Virus record (IMG/VR): IMGVR_UViG_3300008262_000099
DNA from: an uncultured virus (IMG/VR IMGVR_UViG_3300008262_000099)
Taxonomy: Duplodnaviria; Heunggongvirae; Uroviricota; Caudoviricetes
Reading direction: 5' to 3' (one strand)
Length of the DNA: 20,000 nt
Shown here: piece by piece, positions 1,540-13,078 of the stretch
Layout of the letters: every line of letters starts with the position of its first letter
How positions within the stretch are numbered: position 1 is the first letter of the stretch
Translations under genes and position numbers: made by a program
Notes under the pieces: generated by a model
The model's input: only the letters and a program-made list of their open reading frames with translations
Told to the model about the DNA's origin: nothing
Databases searched by the model: none

Positions 1540-1828
1540 GAAAAAAGTCGTAGCTAAGGGTAAAGAGTACGAAGGCTCTAAACAAAACGGTGGTCGCAAG
1601 ATTATCGTAGAGCACTACAAAGATTCAAAAGGTCATTGGCGTACTACTTCCCACAATGCTGCTCGCTACAAGTACCAAAAGAAACACGGCAAACTTTCTA
1701 GAGATACTGACGTAGATCACAAGAATAATAACCACGATGATGATCGTGATGGAAATTTAAGGCCGTTAAGACACGGCAAGAATACTGCTAAAGAGAATAA
1801 ACGTAGAGCAAGAAAAAAGGCCCGGTAA
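1529..1828 (+). CDS. HNH endonuclease-like protein (HNH_3-type motif)
   Basis: ARYKYQKKHGKL...DVDHKNNNHDDDRDGNLRPLRHGKN resembles the VDH-x-N...NL...N core. ATG 1529 follows GAGAG. Confidence 0.65.
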   Translation: MATKKKVVAKGKEYEGSKQNGGRKIIVEHYKDSKGHWRTTSHNAARYKYQKKHGKLSRDTDVDHKNNNHDDDRDGNLRPLRHGKNTAKENKRRARKKAR

Positions 1829-1843
1829 CCCGGGCCCTTTTCT
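1811..1843. terminator. Bidirectional intrinsic terminator between convergent genes
   Basis: GGCCCGG-taac-CCGGGCC stem with an A-tract on the left and CTTTTCT on the right, at the junction of the convergent genes. Confidence 0.75.
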
Positions 1844-2375
1844 ATTGTTGCGGGAATTTATCCAGCCATTGTTCAATTTTAGGTTCTGAAGAACTGCCAT
1901 CATAGGCGTTGGGACCATATCCCCAAGAACCCCAGTTAGTGCCTTTAGCCGTCATATAGAAGGCTGCTTTAGCGTTTTCTACTGGATCGAATAGCTCAGT
2001 ATTCTTTTTTATGCCGAATTTTTTTCTGCGGTCTTCTCCCAAAGAACCAAGCATATTAATCTGGAATATCCCATAAGAATCGTCTCCCGTAGAGATATTG
2101 TCATTGTGCGCCTTTGGTCGTCCATTAGACTCTTTTTTAGCTACGGCCCAAGCTATCTTAAGAGCTTTTCCCTCAAACCCAACTAAAGACAATACCTCAA
2201 CAAGCTCTTTGTCTGAGAGCTCTTTAGCGTTTCTGTATTTATCTAGTGGATCTACAGTAGTAGCTACTGTCACTGTAGCCCCATCTGTTTGGTTTGCTAA
2301 TGCTGCAGGTATACCTGCTAGCAGCAATGCTGCTATCCAAGGTGCTATATAGCGGTGTTTTTCATGTTTCTGCAC
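1842..2375 (-). CDS. Secreted lysozyme-like lytic transglycosylase (SLT-like)
   Basis: Signal-peptide-like N-terminus (basic, hydrophobic, ALA). Catalytic ES motif (AKKESNG), SYGIFQIN and DPVENAKAA motifs. AGGAG RBS upstream of GTG. Confidence 0.85.
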   Translation of the reverse strand: MQKHEKHRYIAPWIAALLLAGIPAALANQTDGATVTVATTVDPLDKYRNAKELSDKELVEVLSLVGFEGKALKIAWAVAKKESNGRPKAHNDNISTGDDSYGIFQINMLGSLGEDRRKKFGIKKNTELFDPVENAKAAFYMTAKGTNWGSWGYGPNAYDGSSSEPKIEQWLDKFPQQ

Positions 2376-2519
2376 TCGTTCTCCTAGGCTAGAGAGCCAG
2401 TCCTAACTTCGTATACCTGTCACCTATACTAAGCAACTTGGCCTCTTTCTGCCAAGTTCGGTCTGCAACCCTTTTGTTACGGAGGTGCTGATGGCCAGAT
2501 TTCTCTGGCCATAGGGACT
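2376..2519 (-). ncRNA. Candidate structured cis-regulatory 5' leader RNA (family not recognised)
   Basis: Five consecutive hairpins at 2491-2512, 2465-2488, 2435-2458, 2406-2434 and 2384-2400. The first has a GAAA tetraloop; the last abuts the SD. Confidence 0.6.
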
Positions 2520-2550
2520 ACCATACCAGTAAATACACACGTACTGTCAA
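2520..2550 (-). promoter_or_regulatory. Housekeeping-sigma-type promoter for the transglycosylase gene
   Basis: Minus strand TTGACA (2550-2545), 19-nt spacer, extended -10 TG-G-TATGGT (2525-2520). Predicted +1 is about 2512. Confidence 0.6.
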
Positions 2551-2555
2551 CTGCA

Positions 2556-2606
2556 ACCCGATATAATATTATTTATCGAATCGTTATAGAAAATGGACTA
2601 TGATTA
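2556..2606 (+). promoter_or_regulatory. Possible divergent promoter for the packaging operon
   Basis: TATAAT at 2562-2567 in an AT-rich intergenic stretch; no clear -35. Confidence 0.3.
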
Positions 2607-2882
2607 ATGAGAATTGAACGTATTGCTACAAAACAGGGACATCCGGTTCCTGAAGCAGCTTCTTATGCTAAAGGACCTTTTCCTCAGGAACTATTTCAAA
2701 GACCTGAAGTTGTAGTAGATTATGAGCCCTATGATGGTGGAAGCGAAACAGCTGTAGGCGGAACCGTTCAAAATAATTTTACTCCGTTAAAATATTTTAA
2801 ATGCAGAGATTGTCAGGAAGTAATGACCGAACGGGAGACTCATGAGCACATCTGCCAGGTTGATAATGGCGAAACCGCGTAG
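2607..2882 (+). CDS. Hypothetical protein with C-terminal Zn-finger-like motif
   Basis: FKCRDC...HEHIC (CxxC...HxC) motif. Confidence 0.7.
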   Translation: MRIERIATKQGHPVPEAASYAKGPFPQELFQRPEVVVDYEPYDGGSETAVGGTVQNNFTPLKYFKCRDCQEVMTERETHEHICQVDNGETA

Positions 2883-3174
2883 TATCAAATCTGTATACTG
2901 GCACCCGCTTATCTATCCTATAAAGCCGCCAGTATTGTGGGAACCTGCAGAAACACAGGAGATTGAAGAGCCGTATCGCTTTGGAAAGGGATATGCGGTA
3001 AGATTACCGCTTACTAGAGTTGCTTTAGTGGTTGGAAAGTGGCGATCACGTTTTAGTGAAAGTCAAGCACTAACTAATGCCATACGTGGCAGAATGATGA
3101 TGGAAGACGAGGTGGATTGGGATTATGTTCGGTTTGGGGGGCAAAAAGATCAAACAGGAACGTCAGAAGACTAG
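2866..3174 (+). CDS. Hypothetical phage protein
   Basis: ORF 2842-3174; ATG 2866 (after AGGT) is the more likely start. Confidence 0.7.
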   Translation: MAKPRSIKSVYWHPLIYPIKPPVLWEPAETQEIEEPYRFGKGYAVRLPLTRVALVVGKWRSRFSESQALTNAIRGRMMMEDEVDWDYVRFGGQKDQTGTSED

Positions 3175-3373
3175 AGTAGAGAAAAGAGTCGACTCTTTAC
3201 CTACATCTGAACTTCTACAATGGGCAGAACAAGCTCTATACCCAATTGGAAGAAACTTATCATCTTGGCAAAAATCTAATGAAGAAGTTTATTTAGAAGA
3301 AGCCAGAATGAACGCTGAAGTGGTGTACACAATAGTAGAAACAATAGCAAAGAGACAAAATGCAAAATTTTGA
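3125..3373 (+). CDS. Hypothetical helical protein immediately upstream of terminase
   Basis: GAGGTGG RBS before ATG 3125; overlaps the terminase start. Confidence 0.7.
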   Translation: MFGLGGKKIKQERQKTRVEKRVDSLPTSELLQWAEQALYPIGRNLSSWQKSNEEVYLEEARMNAEVVYTIVETIAKRQNAKF

Positions 3374-4946
3374 AGATGATGAGCGTTTTGAGGAGCTTGA
3401 AGAAGAGTTTGAAGACGAAGAAGATGGCGGCGATCTTCCTGAAGAAGAGGAAGAACTAGATGAGTTGTCTAGGGAGTTTGTAAACGCCCTAATAGAAAAA
3501 ATAATCCAATTTATGGAAATGTTGGTGGGACATACTTTACACCCATACCAAATGCCACTAGCTCGCAGGGTAATCGAATCTGTAATCATAAACGATGGTG
3601 AAGAAGTTACTGCCTTAGCAGCTCGTCAGTCAGGTAAATCAGAAACAATTGCAAATACGGTTGCAACCTTGATGGTTATTCTTCCTAGACTTGCAAAGAT
3701 GTACCCAGATCTACTTGGTAAGTTTGGTGATGGAATCTGGGTAGGTATGTTTGCTCCCATTCAATCCCAGGTTGAAACCCTTTATGGCCGCACTGTTTCT
3801 AGATTGACTAGTCCACGTGCACTAGAAGTTTTGGGGGACCCAGAAATTGATGACATACCTACAAAGACTCCAGGTATTGTTAAAAACATAAAGTTAAAGA
3901 ATTCTGGCTCCACCCTAATGATGATGACAGCAAACCCTCGTGCAAAGATTGAATCTAAATCTTTTCATCTAATTATTATTGATGAGTGCCAAGACGCAGA
4001 TGACTTTGTAGTATCTAAGTCTATTGCACCTATGGGTGCATACTACAACGCTACTTTAGTTAAGACTGGAACACCAACAACTAGTAAAAATAACTTTTAT
4101 AAAGCTATTCAGCTAAACAAACGTCGTCAAACTAGCCGATCTGCTAAGCAAAACCATTTTCAATGGGATTGGAAAGACGTAGCAAAGTTCAACGCCAACT
4201 ATGAAAAGTTCATTAAGAAAGAGATACTAAGAATCGGGGAGGACTCAGATGAGTTCCAGCTATCGTACAATTGCAAATGGCTTTTGGAAAGGGGCATGTT
4301 TGTTACCTCGTCTATTATGGACAACCTTGGTGACACGTCCCAAGAATTGGTTAAAAGCTGGCATCGTTCACCGGTGGTGGTCGGAATCGACCCCGCAAGA
4401 AAGATGGACTCTACAGTTGTTACTGTTGTCTGGGTCGATTGGGATAGGCCTGATGAATTTGGTTATTATGATCATCGTGTTCTTAATTGGTTAGAGCTAC
4501 AGGGTGACGACTGGGAAGAACAGTATTTTCAGATAGTAAACTTTTTAGAAAATTACGATGTATTGGCTATTGGCGTAGATGCCAACGGTGTTGGAGATGC
4601 AGTTGCACAGCGTATGAAGATCTTGATGCCTAGGGCTGAGGTTATATCTATTTCTTCTAGCGCTACCGAGCAGTCTAGGCGCTGGAAGCACCTACAGGCT
4701 TTAATTCAACGTCAAATGGTTTCTTGGCCGTCCCATGCAAAAACACGACGGTTGAGAATATGGAAGAAGTTTTACCAGCAAATGTCGGACGCTGAGGTGA
4801 AATATAAGGGGGCTAATTTCACGGTGGCAGCTCCTGATGAGGCCCATGCCCACGATGATTTTGTGGATTCTTTAGCCCTTGCCTGCTCTTTAACACAGGA
4901 TATGGTTATGCCTACGGTAGAGGTTAGCTCTTCGCCGTTTTTTTAA
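3360..4946 (+). CDS. terL: Terminase large subunit
   Basis: LHPYQ Q-motif, Walker A ARQSGKS, Walker B LIIIDE, coupling motif TGT, RNase H-like nuclease motifs GIDPA and HDDFVDS. Confidence 0.95.
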   Translation: MQNFEDDERFEELEEEFEDEEDGGDLPEEEEELDELSREFVNALIEKIIQFMEMLVGHTLHPYQMPLARRVIESVIINDGEEVTALAARQSGKSETIANTVATLMVILPRLAKMYPDLLGKFGDGIWVGMFAPIQSQVETLYGRTVSRLTSPRALEVLGDPEIDDIPTKTPGIVKNIKLKNSGSTLMMMTANPRAKIESKSFHLIIIDECQDADDFVVSKSIAPMGAYYNATLVKTGTPTTSKNNFYKAIQLNKRRQTSRSAKQNHFQWDWKDVAKFNANYEKFIKKEILRIGEDSDEFQLSYNCKWLLERGMFVTSSIMDNLGDTSQELVKSWHRSPVVVGIDPARKMDSTVVTVVWVDWDRPDEFGYYDHRVLNWLELQGDDWEEQYFQIVNFLENYDVLAIGVDANGVGDAVAQRMKILMPRAEVISISSSATEQSRRWKHLQALIQRQMVSWPSHAKTRRLRIWKKFYQQMSDAEVKYKGANFTVAAPDEAHAHDDFVDSLALACSLTQDMVMPTVEVSSSPFF

Positions 4947-5521: not shown

Positions 5522-7228
5522 ATGGCTGGCGGAATAGATTTTTCACCCCCGAGTTATAGAGCAGCATCCTCTGACTTAACAATCTCTATTTCTCCACTTG
5601 GATTAGTGGAGTTAGCAGACGAAGAATTTGAAGTTCACGGCCCACGTCTAAATCGCTACTCTCTTAATTGGGCAATGTATTTAGGTCATCACTGGTCATA
5701 TCGTCGTGAGATTGGCGAAGCTCAGATGGTGTATAACTATTACCGAGCATTTACAGATTACATTATTAATTTTACTTTTGGCAGAGGCGTGCAATTTAGA
5801 AGCCCAGCATCTACTGAGGCAATTATCCCCGACGTATTAAAACGTGTATGGGAAGTAGATAATGACAAGGCTTCTATCCTTTGGGAAATGGGACAACAAG
5901 GCGGAGTTTCTGGGGATTGCTTTGTTAAGGTAGCATATGAAGAAGCATATGTAGATCCTGTTGGTCGTCCTAATCCAGGCAAGGTTCGTATCCTTCCTTT
6001 AAACTCATCATTTTGTTTTCCAGAATTTCACCCACACGACCGTTCCCGCCTTATTCGTTTTAAATTGAAGTATCGTTTTTGGGGAACTTCAGCAGAGGGA
6101 ACACGTCAGGTATATACCTACACAGAAATTCTTACAGACGATCGTATTGAAGAATATATCAACGATGAGATGATTGATTCTCGTCCTAATCCTATTGGCG
6201 TAGTGCCTATCGTACATATTCCAAACGTACGTATTTCTGGATCCCCTTGGGGATTGGCAGATTGCCACGATATTATCGTTTTAAATAGAAACTACAATGA
6301 AGTAGCTACAGATATTGCGGATATCATTAACTACCACGCTGCGCCAGTTACGGTTATTACTGGTGCTAAAGCCTCCGCCTTAGAAAAGGGCCCTAAGAAG
6401 GTTTGGGGCGGCCTTCCTAAGGATGCACAGGTATTTAATCTAGAAGGTGGCGGACAGGGCTTAGCGGGAGGATTACAGTATCTAGAGACCGTTAAAAGAG
6501 CTATGCATGAAATGGTCGGTGTCCCAGAAACAGCTCTTGGTCAAGTTCAGCCGATTTCTAATACTTCTGGTGTTGCGCTTGCAATTCAATACCAGCCATT
6601 GATGAATCGCTATCACCAGAAGCTAATTCAATACGGCGAGGGTCTGCAAAAAATCAATAGCCTAGTTCTTAAAACTTTAGCGTTTAAAGAACCTGAAGTA
6701 TTTGTGTACAACCCTGTAGTAAACGGACCTATCAAAAACTATCAACTTCCTGTATTAGATCTTAATAGCCCAGTAACTTTTGAATCAACCGTTCATTTCC
6801 CACAACCATTGCCTTTAGATAAGCTCATTGTTTTGAGTGAAATTGCACAAAAGATGCAGATGGGACTTGAAAGTCGAGAAGGTGCTTTGCGTCAACTTGG
6901 TGAGGAATTCCCAGACGAAAAGCTAGAAGAAATTAGATCCGAACTTATTTCGGATGCAAAGGCAGATGGAGCTATCCAATTGGTGAAGAACCAGATTGCA
7001 GCTTCAATTGCCTCATTAACCGGCATACTTCCAGGGGGGGAGGCTCCTCCAGGAGCTACTCCAGGAGACGGAGTTGGACCTGGTCCATTCGGTCAACCGG
7101 GGGTCATAAGCCCTATGGAAGGCGCTGTGTTAGAAGAGCTTGCTCAGGTTCAAGCTGAATTAGTAACCGAAGCTTATGGCACTAAGATGCCGCAGCGTCG
7201 TACACCTGATTCAGATAAGCCAGAGTAG
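5522..7228 (+). CDS. Portal protein (SPP1 gp6-like)
   Basis: Size and position between terminase and scaffold; NPIGVVPIVHIPN...PWG and NTSGVALAIQYQPL motifs typical of this portal family. Confidence 0.9.
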   Translation: MAGGIDFSPPSYRAASSDLTISISPLGLVELADEEFEVHGPRLNRYSLNWAMYLGHHWSYRREIGEAQMVYNYYRAFTDYIINFTFGRGVQFRSPASTEAIIPDVLKRVWEVDNDKASILWEMGQQGGVSGDCFVKVAYEEAYVDPVGRPNPGKVRILPLNSSFCFPEFHPHDRSRLIRFKLKYRFWGTSAEGTRQVYTYTEILTDDRIEEYINDEMIDSRPNPIGVVPIVHIPNVRISGSPWGLADCHDIIVLNRNYNEVATDIADIINYHAAPVTVITGAKASALEKGPKKVWGGLPKDAQVFNLEGGGQGLAGGLQYLETVKRAMHEMVGVPETALGQVQPISNTSGVALAIQYQPLMNRYHQKLIQYGEGLQKINSLVLKTLAFKEPEVFVYNPVVNGPIKNYQLPVLDLNSPVTFESTVHFPQPLPLDKLIVLSEIAQKMQMGLESREGALRQLGEEFPDEKLEEIRSELISDAKADGAIQLVKNQIAASIASLTGILPGGEAPPGATPGDGVGPGPFGQPGVISPMEGAVLEELAQVQAELVTEAYGTKMPQRRTPDSDKPE

Positions 7229-8154: not shown

Positions 8155-9231
8155 ATGGCATCAGCCGTAACAGGTACCGGCAATTTAGCTGCCGCACCTA
8201 CAGCGTACTCTGGCTCTAACAGCCAGCTAACGCAAGCAATCCAGACGATCTGGTCTAAGGAAATTCTTTTCCAGTCGATGCCAATCCTCCGCTTCGAACA
8301 GTTCGCTGTTAAGAAGACAGAGCTTGGCGTTGCACCTGGTCTCCAGATCAACTTTATGCGTTATAACAACCTTGGTTTTGCAGGAGCACTTGTTGAAGGT
8401 GTTCGTATGCAGACCAATGCATTGACAGCACAGCAGTTCTCAATCACAGTCGCAGAGCATGGCTATGCAATTGCTGTTTCTGAACTTCTACTCAATGCAT
8501 CATTCGATGACGTGATGGCTTCTGCTTCACGTCTTCTTGGCCGTAACATGGCCCTTTATCTCGATGGCCAGGCTCGTGACACCCTCATGGCAGCGTCTTC
8601 CGTTATTTACGGTTATGATCGTTCTGCTAACGTTGCTGTTAACGACTGGTATACAAACGGTACAGTAGGTACTTCACGTGCTTCTCTTACCGGTAACTTC
8701 AACCTTACAACCGCTGTTGTTAAGGACGCTGTCGAGACACTATCAACCAAGAACATTCCACGGCTTGGCGAGACCTACGTGGCATTCGTTCACCCACACC
8801 AGAGCCGTAAGCTTCGTGACCTCCCAGAGTTCATTGAAGTAACTAAGTACGCTGCTCCTGGTAACTTCATGCTCGGTGAAATCGGCCGTCTATATGACAC
8901 AGTATTCATTGAGACCACTCAGATTGAGAAGGTCACAAATGGTGCTGGTGCTGGTTACACTACCGACACTGCAGTAGCTGCAGGCTCAATTGTTTACCCA
9001 ACTGGTGGAGGTTATACATCTCCAGTAACAAAGACTGGTAACGGTAACAAGGATCGCTATACAGCTATCTTCATCGGTGACAATGCATTTGGTCACGCGA
9101 TCTCACTTCCAGTCGAACTCCGCGATGGCGGTATTCTTGACTTCGGCCGTGAGCACGCTCTTGCTTGGTATGCTATCTACGGTCTTGGTCTTATTACTGA
9201 CCAGTCTGTAGTCTTGGCAGAAACCAACTAA
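8155..9231 (+). CDS. Major capsid protein (N4-gp56-like, HK97 fold)
   Basis: 358 aa; LRFEQFA, LVEGV, YVAFVHPHQ, GEIGRLYDTVFIET and DFGREHALAWY motifs; strong AAGGAG RBS; biased codon usage. Confidence 0.93.
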   Translation: MASAVTGTGNLAAAPTAYSGSNSQLTQAIQTIWSKEILFQSMPILRFEQFAVKKTELGVAPGLQINFMRYNNLGFAGALVEGVRMQTNALTAQQFSITVAEHGYAIAVSELLLNASFDDVMASASRLLGRNMALYLDGQARDTLMAASSVIYGYDRSANVAVNDWYTNGTVGTSRASLTGNFNLTTAVVKDAVETLSTKNIPRLGETYVAFVHPHQSRKLRDLPEFIEVTKYAAPGNFMLGEIGRLYDTVFIETTQIEKVTNGAGAGYTTDTAVAAGSIVYPTGGGYTSPVTKTGNGNKDRYTAIFIGDNAFGHAISLPVELRDGGILDFGREHALAWYAIYGLGLITDQSVVLAETN

Positions 9232-10873: not shown

Positions 10874-13078
10874 GTGACAGATCCAGAGATCATACAAATT
10901 ATTGAGCAAAGCCCTGAAATTGTAGTCTTTGGTCCTGATACAGCTGGTCCTGCAGGAGCTATGGGACCTACTGGTCCAACAGGACCGACAGGAGCAGCAT
11001 CAACTGTAACTGGACCTACTGGAGCAACTGGTGCAACTGGTCCTATGGGAGCTACTGGTGCAACAGGACCAACAGGTGCTGCAAGCACAGTTGTGGGTCC
11101 CACTGGTCCGCAAGGAGCTACTGGTCCTGCTGGTCCTAAAGGATCTACTGGTCCACAAGGACCTACTGGCCCAATTGGTGCAACAGGACCTGCCGGTGAA
11201 CAAGGAGTTACTGGCCCACAAGGTATTCAAGGACCTATGGGGGCAACTGGACCGACAGGTTCTAGGGGTGCAACAGGTCCAACCGGATCTCAAGGTATTC
11301 AAGGACCAACTGGTCCTGCCGGTACTGGAGTTACTATTCAGGGAACACTTCCCAATGAAAGTGAACTTCCAGAAGTTGGTTTGCCTGGAGATGCATATTT
11401 AATCGATGGTGATCTTTACGTTTGGGATAATGCAAATACCATCTGGGAAAATGTTGGAAATATTCAAGGACCTACTGGTCCACAAGGAGCAACGGGCGCA
11501 ACAGGTCCACAAGGTCTTCAAGGTTTTCAAGGTTTAGCTGGTGCAACTGGCGCACAAGGACCTACTGGACCTACAGGTGCACAAGGCGCAACTGGTCTTC
11601 CAGGACCAACAGGTCCTCAAGGTGAGCAGGGTCTAACTGGAGAGCTTGGACCAACTGGTCCACAAGGCGCAACTGGTCCTACGGGAGCACAAGGACCAAC
11701 AGGTGCCGCATCTAATGTTCCTGGACCTACAGGTCCTACTGGTGCTACGGGTGAAACAGGTTTACCTGGTGTACAGGGTATTCAAGGACTTCAAGGTGAA
11801 CAAGGTATTCAAGGAGAAACCGGTCCTACTGGCCCACAAGGTTTACAAGGTGAGGTCGGACCTACTGGACCTACCGGTGCAACTGGTCAAGGCTTAAATG
11901 TTTTAGGTGCATTAAACAACTCTGGTGAATTACCTGCATCAGGTAGTCCAGGAGATGCGTACATTATCTCTGGAGATTTATATGTTTGGAGTAGCAACTC
12001 TTCTTCTTGGGTAAACGTAGGAAGAATTGAAGGGGCTACTGGTCCAACAGGAGCGCAAGGTGATATAGGACCTACTGGACCACAAGGTGAAACTGGACTT
12101 ATTGGTCCTACTGGACCACAAGGTGAGCAAGGTTTAGCAGGTCTTGAAGGTGATCAAGGTCCACAAGGTGAAGTCGGACCAACTGGTCCACAAGGTGCGG
12201 CTGGACCTACCGGACCTACTGGTCCAATGCCATTTAACTATGTTGGTGCGTATGACAATGGTGCTGATTATTACCCTGGCATGGTTGTTTCATATTCAGG
12301 ATTTTTATGGATTCGTATTGGTGAAGCAAACCCAGGCTATCCACCATATGAAGGAAGTCCTTATTGGTCACTATTTTTAGGCGCAACAGGTGCACAAGGT
12401 GAGACTGGTGCAACCGGTCCGCAAGGAGATGCAGGTCCAACAGGACCAACCGGTCTAACTGGAGATATTGGACCTACTGGTCCACAGGGAGATCTTGGAC
12501 CTACGGGACCTCAAGGTGAAGTTGGACCAACTGGACCAACAGGACCTGAAGGTAAGTCTTTTGTAGTAAGAGGGACTTTAAGTTTAATAGCAGATCTTCC
12601 TACTACAGGAAATATTTTAGGAGACGCCTATGTAGTACAAGAAGATGGTGGACATCTTTGGGTATGGGATGGAACAGAGTTTGATGACATAGGACAAGTA
12701 GTGGGGCCAACAGGTCCTACAGGTCCAACTGGTCCAGAAGGTGTTTCAGGTCCTACCGGACCAACAGGTAAGTTTGCATATACTTCAGAAACACCGCCTG
12801 TTGGTGCAGCAAATGGAGATGCTTGGTTTAACCCTACAGATGGTTCTGCGTATATCTGGTATGATAATTATTGGATTGAGGTTGGTGCGGCTCCTCTAGG
12901 ACCTACCGGACCTACAGGACCTGCGGGTCCTATTCAAGACATTATTCCAGTTATTGTTTCTGCCTTTGACCATGCGAATCATCAAGGCCTTACAGTAACC
13001 TATGATGAAGCATCAGAAGAAGTACGCATCATTTCCGATGTTGCGTTTATTGAAGCAGTAGCCTTAGCGGCTTTGTGA
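10874..13078 (+). CDS. Collagen-like fibre protein (Gly-X-Y, GPT-rich) with interspersed globular domains
   Basis: Long [10 protein letters not shown] tracts interrupted by GDAY...LYVW domains and a CBM5/12-like domain. Confidence 0.9.
10949..12932 (+). repeat. Degenerate 9-nt coding repeats (GGW CCW ACW) of the collagen tracts
   Basis: Directly visible ggacctact/ggtccaaca-type repeats. Confidence 0.9.

Follow-up and report, generated by a model that had tools for sequence, protein, structure and literature searches.

The Locus and Its Lysozyme-Like Gene

The DNA analyzed in this work is a stretch of 20,000 nucleotides (nt) from an uncultured virus (IMG/VR record IMGVR_UViG_3300008262_000099), which is referred to here as the window. 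It is phage DNA, and its plus strand carries the genes of the large terminase (3360–4946), the portal (5522–7228), the major head protein (8155–9231), and a collagen-repeat tail fibre (10874–13078). A gene running in the opposite direction to these packaging, head, and tail genes encodes a 177-amino-acid protein, in which the domains SLT_3 (PF18896, E 4.5e-17) and SLT (PF01464, E 8.2e-07) were recognized and which aligns with the catalytic region of lysozyme C (C-type; KESN...DSYGIFQIN). Its N-terminus, MQKHEKHRYIAPWIAALLLAGIPAALA, is signal-peptide-like, as judged by eye from the translation. The NCBIfam search returned no matches for this SLT_3 gene or for its three upstream open reading frames (ORFs).

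The gene is preceded by a divergent intergenic region of 231 bp (2376–2606), which an earlier note, made from the sequence alone, had described as holding a riboswitch-like leader of five hairpins. The subject of this study is that leader, positions 2512 to 2373 on the minus strand. As a promoter, the leader, the gene, and an intrinsic terminator are all present, the locus is a self-contained, monocistronic unit (Table 1). The analysis upheld the view that the secreted lysozyme-like enzyme encoded by the phage has a conserved and structured leader located in cis, and we regard it as almost certain that this part of the minus strand specifies a functional conserved RNA.

Relatives of the Leader in Viral Contigs

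A protein search of viral contigs covered 600 candidate stretches, in which it found 593 relatives; the best 80 of these were retained. The leader was recovered by blastn in 8 of these 80 loci, and a covariance model found 9 matches in 81 sources, the window included. A larger sample was obtained with two DNA patterns derived from separate regions of the motif, and each of them gave at least 119 stretches in viral contigs. The pooled matches of both patterns contained at least 99 distinct copies, all of them recovered by the model R1 at 91–166 bits. The resulting alignment (A4) has 98 distinct rows, and all counts of relatives given here are lower bounds.

The first pattern had at least 126 matches, of which 7 were unrelated, one (L189) was cut by the end of its locus, and 118 were true copies. 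All 118 copies carry AGGAGA followed by four bases and GTG. The string AGCCTAGGAG was present in 118 of the 119 motif-like sequences collected with a pattern that does not contain it, the exception being the truncated L189. The hexamer GTGACA was invariant in the alignment A2, a set that was chosen without selecting on it.

All 53 complete and distinct downstream ORFs are homologous to the gene of the window (171–183 amino acids, 39–100% identity, E ≤ 6e-37). Since these proteins diverge down to 39% identity while the RNA core stays nearly invariant, the conservation of the core far exceeds that of the protein. Of the 83 loci with enough flanking sequence, 82 have a divergent upstream gene homologous to the window ORF 2607–2882, which indicates that the motif is part of a single syntenic phage lineage rather than a mobile cassette.

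Covariation Defines a Revised Fold of the Leader

The 146-nt leader of the window has a predicted minimum free energy (MFE) of −52.4 kcal/mol (z −3.67), and none of 200 shuffled sequences folded as well. In the structure revised with the help of the relatives, three hairpins (P1, P3, and P4) are combined with a long-range helix, H1, which is extended after a CA bulge by a shorter helix, H2, closing a three-way junction with P3 and P4 (Table 1). Over the 98 distinct relatives, 90.2% of the alignment cells of this structure are paired compared with 75.2% in shuffles, 739 cells are changed on both sides compared with 254, and the covariation score is 0.475 compared with 0.208; none of the 500 shuffles was as good in any of these respects. 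When the partners were slid by one to three columns, only 28–44% of the cells were paired. Changes on both sides were seen at 28 of the 46 pairs. The structural conservation among homologues expected from the earlier note was thus found, and the leader has an aptamer-like core made up of covarying helices and conserved unpaired nucleotides.

Three of the five hairpins proposed earlier, namely P1, P3, and P4, are supported by compensatory changes, while the other two are replaced by H1. A P1 hairpin of at least 4 bp is found in all 98 relatives, although these have 70 distinct sequences in it, and its loop is of the GNRA type in 53. In P3, both partners have changed at 7 of the 8 pairs, and 98.6% of the cells are paired; the corresponding values for P4 are 7 of the 9 pairs and 98.9%, and one P4 pair occurs as six pair types. 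All 686 cells of the long-range helix H1 are paired; in 34 of them both partners have changed, compared with 9.7 in shuffles (none of 500 reached this), and slid partners gave 19–61% pairing. Its covarying pairs are 49:130 (GC 66, AU 28, GU 4), 51:129 (GC 91, AU 6, GU 1), and 54:126 (GU 92, AU 6). Helix H2 has fewer informative changes; in the relative L096, its mismatch becomes two Watson–Crick pairs.

The two local hairpins of the MFE fold that compete for these strands were rejected. Hairpin P2 (GUAAC/GUUGC), which the MFE fold has where the earlier note had drawn its second hairpin (GCACC..GGUUGC), breaks where it varies, three of its pairs having 23, 6, and 1 unpaired cells. In a second, pattern-independent sample, 43 of the 118 copies have a variant sequence at the place of P2, and the changes keep the pairing with UGGCUCU, that is, with the 3′ strand of H1. 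Hairpin P5 (CUGGCU-CUCU-AGCCUAG), the fifth in the earlier note, is invariant and hence uninformative, and its 5′ half belongs to H1, where it pairs with AGGGUUG. The proposed kissing of an AGAG loop with the CUCU loop also failed, as 79.6% of its cells are paired compared with 79.5% in shuffles (306 of 500 reach this level) and 52 of the 98 relatives break a pair. The suggested closure of the whole domain by AGUCC and GGACU was given up as well: AGUCC upstream of P1 is not conserved (alignment A1), and GGAC is assigned to H2.

The direction of the RNA can be read from the G-U and A-C cells. In H1, P3, and P4, there are 600 G-U cells and 7 A-C cells, so that only an RNA with the minus-strand sequence, which is the sense of the gene, can form these pairs.

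The nearly invariant unpaired nucleotides are those in the loops of P3 (AGAMAKAS) and P4 (GUGACAG) and in the internal loop of 8 × 8 nt formed by GUAACAAA and CUAGCCUA, which is a candidate binding pocket. A candidate tertiary pair, 75:120 in A4, is 92% canonical. It should be noted that the P3 loop (2450–2443; AGAAAGAG or AGACAGAC) and the P4 loop (2424–2416) have GAMAG in common, which could be a repeated recognition element.

Table 1. Elements of the leader and of its transcription unit in the window, listed in the 5′ to 3′ order of the minus strand (SD, Shine–Dalgarno sequence).
Feature	Position	Strand	Details
Promoter (predicted)	2520–2550	minus	−35 TTGACA 2550–2545; extended −10 TG 2528–2527; −10 TATGGT 2525–2520
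P1, 5′-terminal hairpin	2491–2512	minus	AUGGCCAGA-GAAA-UCUGGCCAU; changes on both sides at all 9 pairs
5′ linker	2473–2490	minus	CAGCACCUCCGUAACAAA; in the MFE structure, 5′ strand of helix P0: GCAC 2488–2485 and anti-SD CUCC 2484–2481
Internal loop strand	2473–2480	minus	GUAACAAA; one side of the conserved internal loop
Long-range helices, 5′ strands	2460–2472	minus	H1 AGGGUUG 2472–2466; bulge CA 2465–2464; H2 GACC 2463–2460
P3 hairpin	2435–2458	minus	AACUUGGC-AGAAAGAG-GCCAAGUU; conserved 8-nt loop AGAMAKAS
P4 hairpin	2406–2434	minus	invariant loop core GUGACA
Long-range helices, 3′ strands	2393–2403	minus	H2 GGAC 2403–2400; H1 UGGCUCU 2399–2393
3′ tail	2373–2392	minus	internal loop strand CUAGCCUA 2392–2385; SD GGAG 2384–2381; spacer AACGA 2380–2376; start GUG 2375–2373
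Regulated gene	1842–2375	minus	GUG start; 177-amino-acid protein with a signal-peptide-like N-terminus and an SLT_3/lysozyme-like domain
Intrinsic terminator	1812–1837	minus	GGCCCGG-GUUA-CCGGGCC, then six U (1836–1813), after the SLT_3 gene; the scan listed the same hairpin for the plus strand

The Promoter and the Transcript

The sequence elements that the earlier note had picked out by eye (TTGACA, TG, TATGGT, CCUCC at 2485–2481, AGGAG at 2385–2381, and GUG at 2375–2373) all lie where it had placed them. The promoter was missed by a simple consensus scan because its spacer is 19 nt long. A TAnnnT hexamer precedes the first paired base of P1 by 3–8 nt (mode 6) in all 98 relatives, and the extended −10 TG is present in 86 of them. 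This fixed distance puts the transcription start at or beside A2512, in agreement with the start previously proposed at about 2512. The promoter spacer contains a conserved element, CTGTAKTTACTG, which occurs once in the window; in the nearest related virus genome (G001), there is one good copy and only one weaker second site. It was rejected as a general phage promoter element, since these single copies mark it as specific to the motif locus.

The stretch was found in 19 rows of RNA libraries, and four freshwater metatranscriptome runs were compared with the window. In three of the four runs, the contigs (1844–2501, 1883–2499, and 1851–2499) join the leader to the coding sequence and stop at 2499–2501, with no RNA contig cover over 2502–2540; in the fourth run, the contig passes through the region (1522–2990). 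As such contigs show neither true ends nor strand and RNA libraries can hold DNA, the ends at 2499–2501 are a weak hint at a 5′ end near P1. There is better evidence from the contigs that the leader and the gene form one transcript. The parts of the window without RNA contig cover were not counted as silent.

A start at A2512 would give an RNA that begins with AUG and opens a leaderless ORF of 11 codons (2512–2477), ending at the UAA of GUAAC. It was rejected as a feature of the family. The same arrangement occurs in relatives with the CACUA linker and an AUGGCC-type P1, but in L002 and L003 the frame stops earlier, and in relatives with a UAGGGG- or UAGAGG-type P1 the AUG is absent, as judged by eye. 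An internal promoter-like site at 2455–2426 was also rejected, as it lies within covarying stems and is not conserved. Just before the Shine–Dalgarno sequence (SD), there is a further TAnnnT hexamer, TAGCCT (2390–2385, minus strand), which is kept in 97 of the 98 relatives. It lacks a TG extension, its distance from the GUG is 10 nt, and it may mark a second, leader-skipping start.

Predicted Pairing of the Linker with the Ribosome-Binding Site

In the MFE structure of the window, GCACCUCC is paired with GGAG...GUGC. The SD is predicted to be paired with a probability of 0.96, and the start codon with one of 0.89, so that in the window the ribosome-binding site is occluded, by prediction, by an upstream complementary segment; the effect is weaker in the other types of linker. 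The relatives have three such types, namely type A of the window (GCAC:GUGC and CUCC:GGAG, duplex energy −10.3 kcal/mol), type B of most relatives (CACUA:UAGUG, −6.9 or −4.7 kcal/mol), and type C (CACGC:GUGUG, −9.7 kcal/mol).

None of the leader hairpins P1, P3, and P4 is followed by a U-run, and the sole terminator on the minus strand lies after the gene. Control by termination is therefore unlikely. We think that the leader probably acts in cis on the initiation of translation, by occluding the SD and the start codon.

Other Leaders of the Same Gene

Two other arrangements were seen in front of homologues of the SLT gene. In the loci L010, L014, L015, L017, L020, and L038, a short leader lies about 100 nt upstream of the start of the homologue, and the order of elements is a TTGACA promoter, a hairpin with a GAAA loop, CCUAACUGAGAGGAG, and ATG. 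It resembles P1, the linker, and the SD without the 94-nt core. The loci L023, L024, L031, and L039 have a leader of another kind, which is about 150 nt long, is located some 170 nt before the start of the homologue, and has a similar promoter (GTTGCTGACCC...TATGGTAA). This leader has the short strings GGGUUGGCUAG and CCUAACAAAGGAAAA in common with the motif, was not matched by R1, and may represent a second leader family for the same gene. When the model R1 was run with filters off on the other SLT-homologue leaders, the only match was a marginal one to a hairpin (E 0.038), in the clade with the short leader and with the core skipped.

The Phage and Its Probable Host

The nearest related virus genome, G001, has 104,454 bp, is rated 100% complete, and contains one copy of the motif. 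It encodes two WhiB-family proteins (C1:58076–58297 and 67914–68102; E 4e-20 and 3e-19). The terminase is 51–52% identical to those of Streptomyces phages with genomes of 112–116 kb, such as BRock, and the GC content is 38–46%. From the two WhiB genes, the Streptomyces-phage-like terminase, and this GC content, we infer a host among low-GC freshwater Actinobacteria. The phage is thus, by its gene content, probably an actinophage, and the actinobacterial setting assumed in the earlier note is plausible. A blastn comparison of window positions 1800–2900 with isolated phages gave no match.

Among bacteria, one order, the Saccharimonadales, was searched, and the motif was found in 1 of its 151 genomes, the single match being on a phage-like contig. 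This 17-kb contig (L200, also contig 18 of G002) belongs to a metagenome-assembled genome of Candidatus Saccharimonadales, and its motif, SLT gene, terminase, and portal follow one another as they do in the window. The assembled genome has 1.6 Mb, compared with 0.6–1.2 Mb for the listed relatives. Saccharimonadales were rejected as the host, since one genome of 151 with a contig syntenic with the phage points to probable mis-binning.

On the plus strand at 2607–3373, directly upstream of the large terminase, the window has three small overlapping ORFs (91, 110, and 82 amino acids) without a family match in Pfam, PHROGs, or NCBIfam; they are candidates for the small terminase or a packaging accessory protein. 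The strand opposite to the SLT gene encodes, downstream of this gene, a DUF6321 protein (861–1250) and has a weak HNH-like ORF (1502–1828), a homologue of the latter being found in 46 of 70 related loci. The tail-fibre-like protein has 734 amino acids, and eight stretches of collagen triple-helix repeats were matched in it (E 1e-51).

A Model of Control and Its Alternatives

Taken together, we tentatively favour the reading that the monocistronic mRNA of the secreted lysozyme-like enzyme begins with a new control leader of the riboswitch type acting on translation, which we hold to be a serious possibility rather than a probable one. According to this model, the linker just after P1 (GCAC-CUCC in the window, a copy of the 16S anti-SD) would pair with the SD GGAG and the GUG start to form the helix P0 and thereby limit the access of the ribosome. 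A factor bound at the conserved core, that is, at the three-way junction, the loops, and the internal loop, would set how firmly P0 and H1 are held. A small molecule is our first guess for this factor because of the aptamer-like anatomy and of the example set by the cyclic di-AMP (c-di-AMP) riboswitches that lie before cell-wall hydrolase genes in Actinobacteria. The leader would then work as an OFF-type translational switch in the manner of these riboswitches. We find it conceivable, with somewhat more doubt than conviction, that the leader represents a new riboswitch class in this sense. Somewhat less likely is the more specific version in which a phage-borne riboswitch class of freshwater Actinobacteria senses a host small molecule tied to the state of the cell wall or of growth. 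In that version, a cyclic dinucleotide or a peptidoglycan precursor, for example, would bind in the core of the internal loop and three-way junction and gate the translation of the muramidase. If this were true, the phage would read the physiology of the host through RNA in order to time or dose its attack on the cell wall.

Several results weigh against the favoured model. The pairing of P0 is without classical covariation, as the pairs on the SD side are either invariant or broken; a perfect CUCC:GGAG is found in only 20 of the 98 relatives, and pair 34:143 is unpaired in 23. The cognate duplex of linker and tail reaches only z −1.0 relative to a shuffled linker. When pairing was predicted for 97 sequences, the SD averaged 0.72 and the start codon 0.67, with the linker contributing only 0.22 and 0.34. 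An alternative conserved conformer was not found. By nearest-neighbour energies, the local hairpins P2 and P5, which compete with H1, are preferred: folds constrained to contain H1 lie 1.2–11 kcal/mol (mean 6.3) above the MFE, and the MFE fold contains H1 in 6 of the 98 sequences. The energy models disfavour H1 mainly because the 8 × 8 internal loop is penalized. As the relatives were collected by patterns, the invariance within the pattern regions is partly built in; for each pattern region, one of the two samples was unconstrained. The model to which alignment A4 was fitted contained the rejected hairpins, so that the support for H1 is conservative. The motif was absent from 72 of the best 80 protein-homologue loci. 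Finally, the motif was seen upstream of a single gene family, within a single syntenic phage lineage, and as one copy in a genome of 104 kb, with no association with several genes or taxa. Such a narrow spread is atypical for a metabolite riboswitch and more typical of a protein-operated or purely structural leader.

An RNA-binding protein of the phage or the host could thus be the effector, holding the loops and the internal loop and repressing or activating translation at a set time of infection. Phages commonly use translational repressors, such as RegA and gp32 of T4 and the coat proteins of RNA phages. The covariation and the conserved unpaired nucleotides fit such an operator equally well, the GAMAG found in the loops of both P3 and P4 could suit a dimeric protein, and confinement to one gene in one lineage is what would be expected of a lineage-specific protein–RNA pair. 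However, no candidate protein was found, the neighbouring small ORFs are without a family match, and the multi-helix fold with its long-range helix is more elaborate than typical operators. We hold a protein operator to be a serious rival, although of rather low probability. Our estimate is the same for a leader that needs no effector, in which P1 would stabilize the mRNA and the closed fold would keep the translation of a dangerous secreted muramidase low. The position of P1 exactly at the predicted 5′ end in all types and the predicted pairing of the SD and the start in the window agree with this, and the presence of different leaders in other clades of the same gene (the short hairpin with CCUAACUGAGAGGAG and the leader of about 150 nt) may reflect a general requirement for damping the SLT gene. 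Nevertheless, simple occlusion would not need nearly invariant nucleotides in the loops and the internal loop across proteins that are only 39% identical. In a variant of this explanation that resembles the scheme of T4 gene e, the long transcripts would be silent and a second start inside the leader would later give a translatable mRNA. The TAGCCT hexamer conserved in 97 of the 98 relatives just before the SD would suit such a start, but its lack of a TG extension and its distance of 10 nt from the GUG, the lack of conservation of the site at 2455–2426, and the RNA contigs that cover the leader up to 2499–2501 and join it to the coding sequence speak against it.

It is highly improbable that the element is no cis-acting leader at all, but a DNA element, such as a packaging signal or an operator beside the terminase module, or a separate small RNA acting in trans. 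The divergent intergenic location just upstream of the packaging genes and the perfect 9-bp inverted repeat formed by P1 at the transcription start would be in keeping with this reading. DNA sites, however, do not need the one-strand pairing revealed by the excess of G-U over A-C cells, and the helix sequences vary freely with the pairing kept. The contigs that join the leader to the coding sequence, the lack of a terminator between the leader and the gene, and the inclusion of the SD and the start codon in the conserved block also speak against it. Among these explanations, the riboswitch-type leader acting on translation is the one that we prefer.

Comparison with Known Systems

The leader was not matched by any Rfam family. 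A cmscan search against Rfam 15 gave no match on the whole window at the gathering score and none at E ≤ 10 on positions 2200–2750, and for seven related loci there was no match on the motif at E ≤ 1. No tRNA or tmRNA was found. A description of this leader motif was likewise not found in the literature searched. A 2023 catalogue of 10,006 candidate viral structured RNAs from IMG/VR (PMC10690425) lists unnamed, mostly freshwater entries located no more than 25 bp upstream of LT_IagB-like, Lys, SLT, or lyz_i genes, among them DNAVirus_8156 (39 nt, 1 covarying base, 196 sequences, 176 of them from freshwater), DNAVirus_322 (83 nt, 3 covarying bases, 23 sequences), and DNAVirus_6238 (61 nt, 4 covarying bases, 122 sequences) (PMC10690425). 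In the summary tables, these entries are given without a function or a full fold, and a fragment of the 140-nt motif may thus already be catalogued without either. The suggestion that the RNA is undescribed hence holds as far as Rfam and the literature descriptions are concerned, and has to be qualified by these short candidates before lysozyme- and SLT-type genes.

Should the leader respond to a ligand or a protein, it would be a new class of regulatory RNA in abundant uncultured freshwater actinophages and would control the synthesis of a secreted cell-wall enzyme, a step on which the lysis of the host or the remodelling of its wall depends. Phage-borne elements of the riboswitch type are few. 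The motif is ready for probing and reporter work, as it is defined by 98 distinct variants with strong covariation and as its transcripts occur in lake metatranscriptomes. Even as an orphan motif, it provides a corrected fold and a covariance model with which hundreds of viral contigs can be annotated.

As regards known mechanisms of control, the leader differs from a transcription attenuator in having no GC-rich hairpin with a U-run inside it. The lysozyme gene e of T4 has an inhibitory leader in which the ribosome-binding site is paired with an upstream complementary segment; it is a simple local hairpin that is bypassed by an internal late promoter. The two systems have in common a phage lysozyme gene whose ribosome-binding site pairs, by prediction in the case of the motif, with a segment of its own leader. 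Unlike the T4 leader, the motif has a conserved and covarying core of about 95 nt that separates the anti-SD from the SD, and a conserved internal promoter could not be shown in it, only TAGCCT being conserved. The three-way-junction aptamers of the purine, thiamine pyrophosphate, and glycine types resemble the motif in that two hairpins with conserved loops stand on a closing helix, with a conserved junction and a link to the SD. The motif differs from these aptamers in being without an Rfam match, in the P3 and P4 loops not being mutually complementary, and in adding the conserved 8 × 8 internal loop and the 5′-terminal hairpin.

A further parallel is the ydaO/yuaA c-di-AMP riboswitch (RF00379), to which the motif is at most similar in its mode of action. 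Such a riboswitch precedes the cell-wall hydrolase gene rpfA in Streptomyces. Control of a cell-wall peptidase gene (nlpC) by a c-di-AMP riboswitch in Corynebacterium is reported (PMC9960051). The motif cannot be assigned to the ydaO family, as there was no covariance-model match even at E ≤ 10; the earlier note had also failed to match it to the ydaO consensus. In addition, the motif has a three-way junction and a long-range helix, no pseudo-twofold symmetry was seen in it, and it is encoded by a phage before a single gene family. What the two leaders have in common is a long multi-helix structure before a secreted peptidoglycan-cleaving gene, an actinobacterial setting, and a likely OFF-type action.

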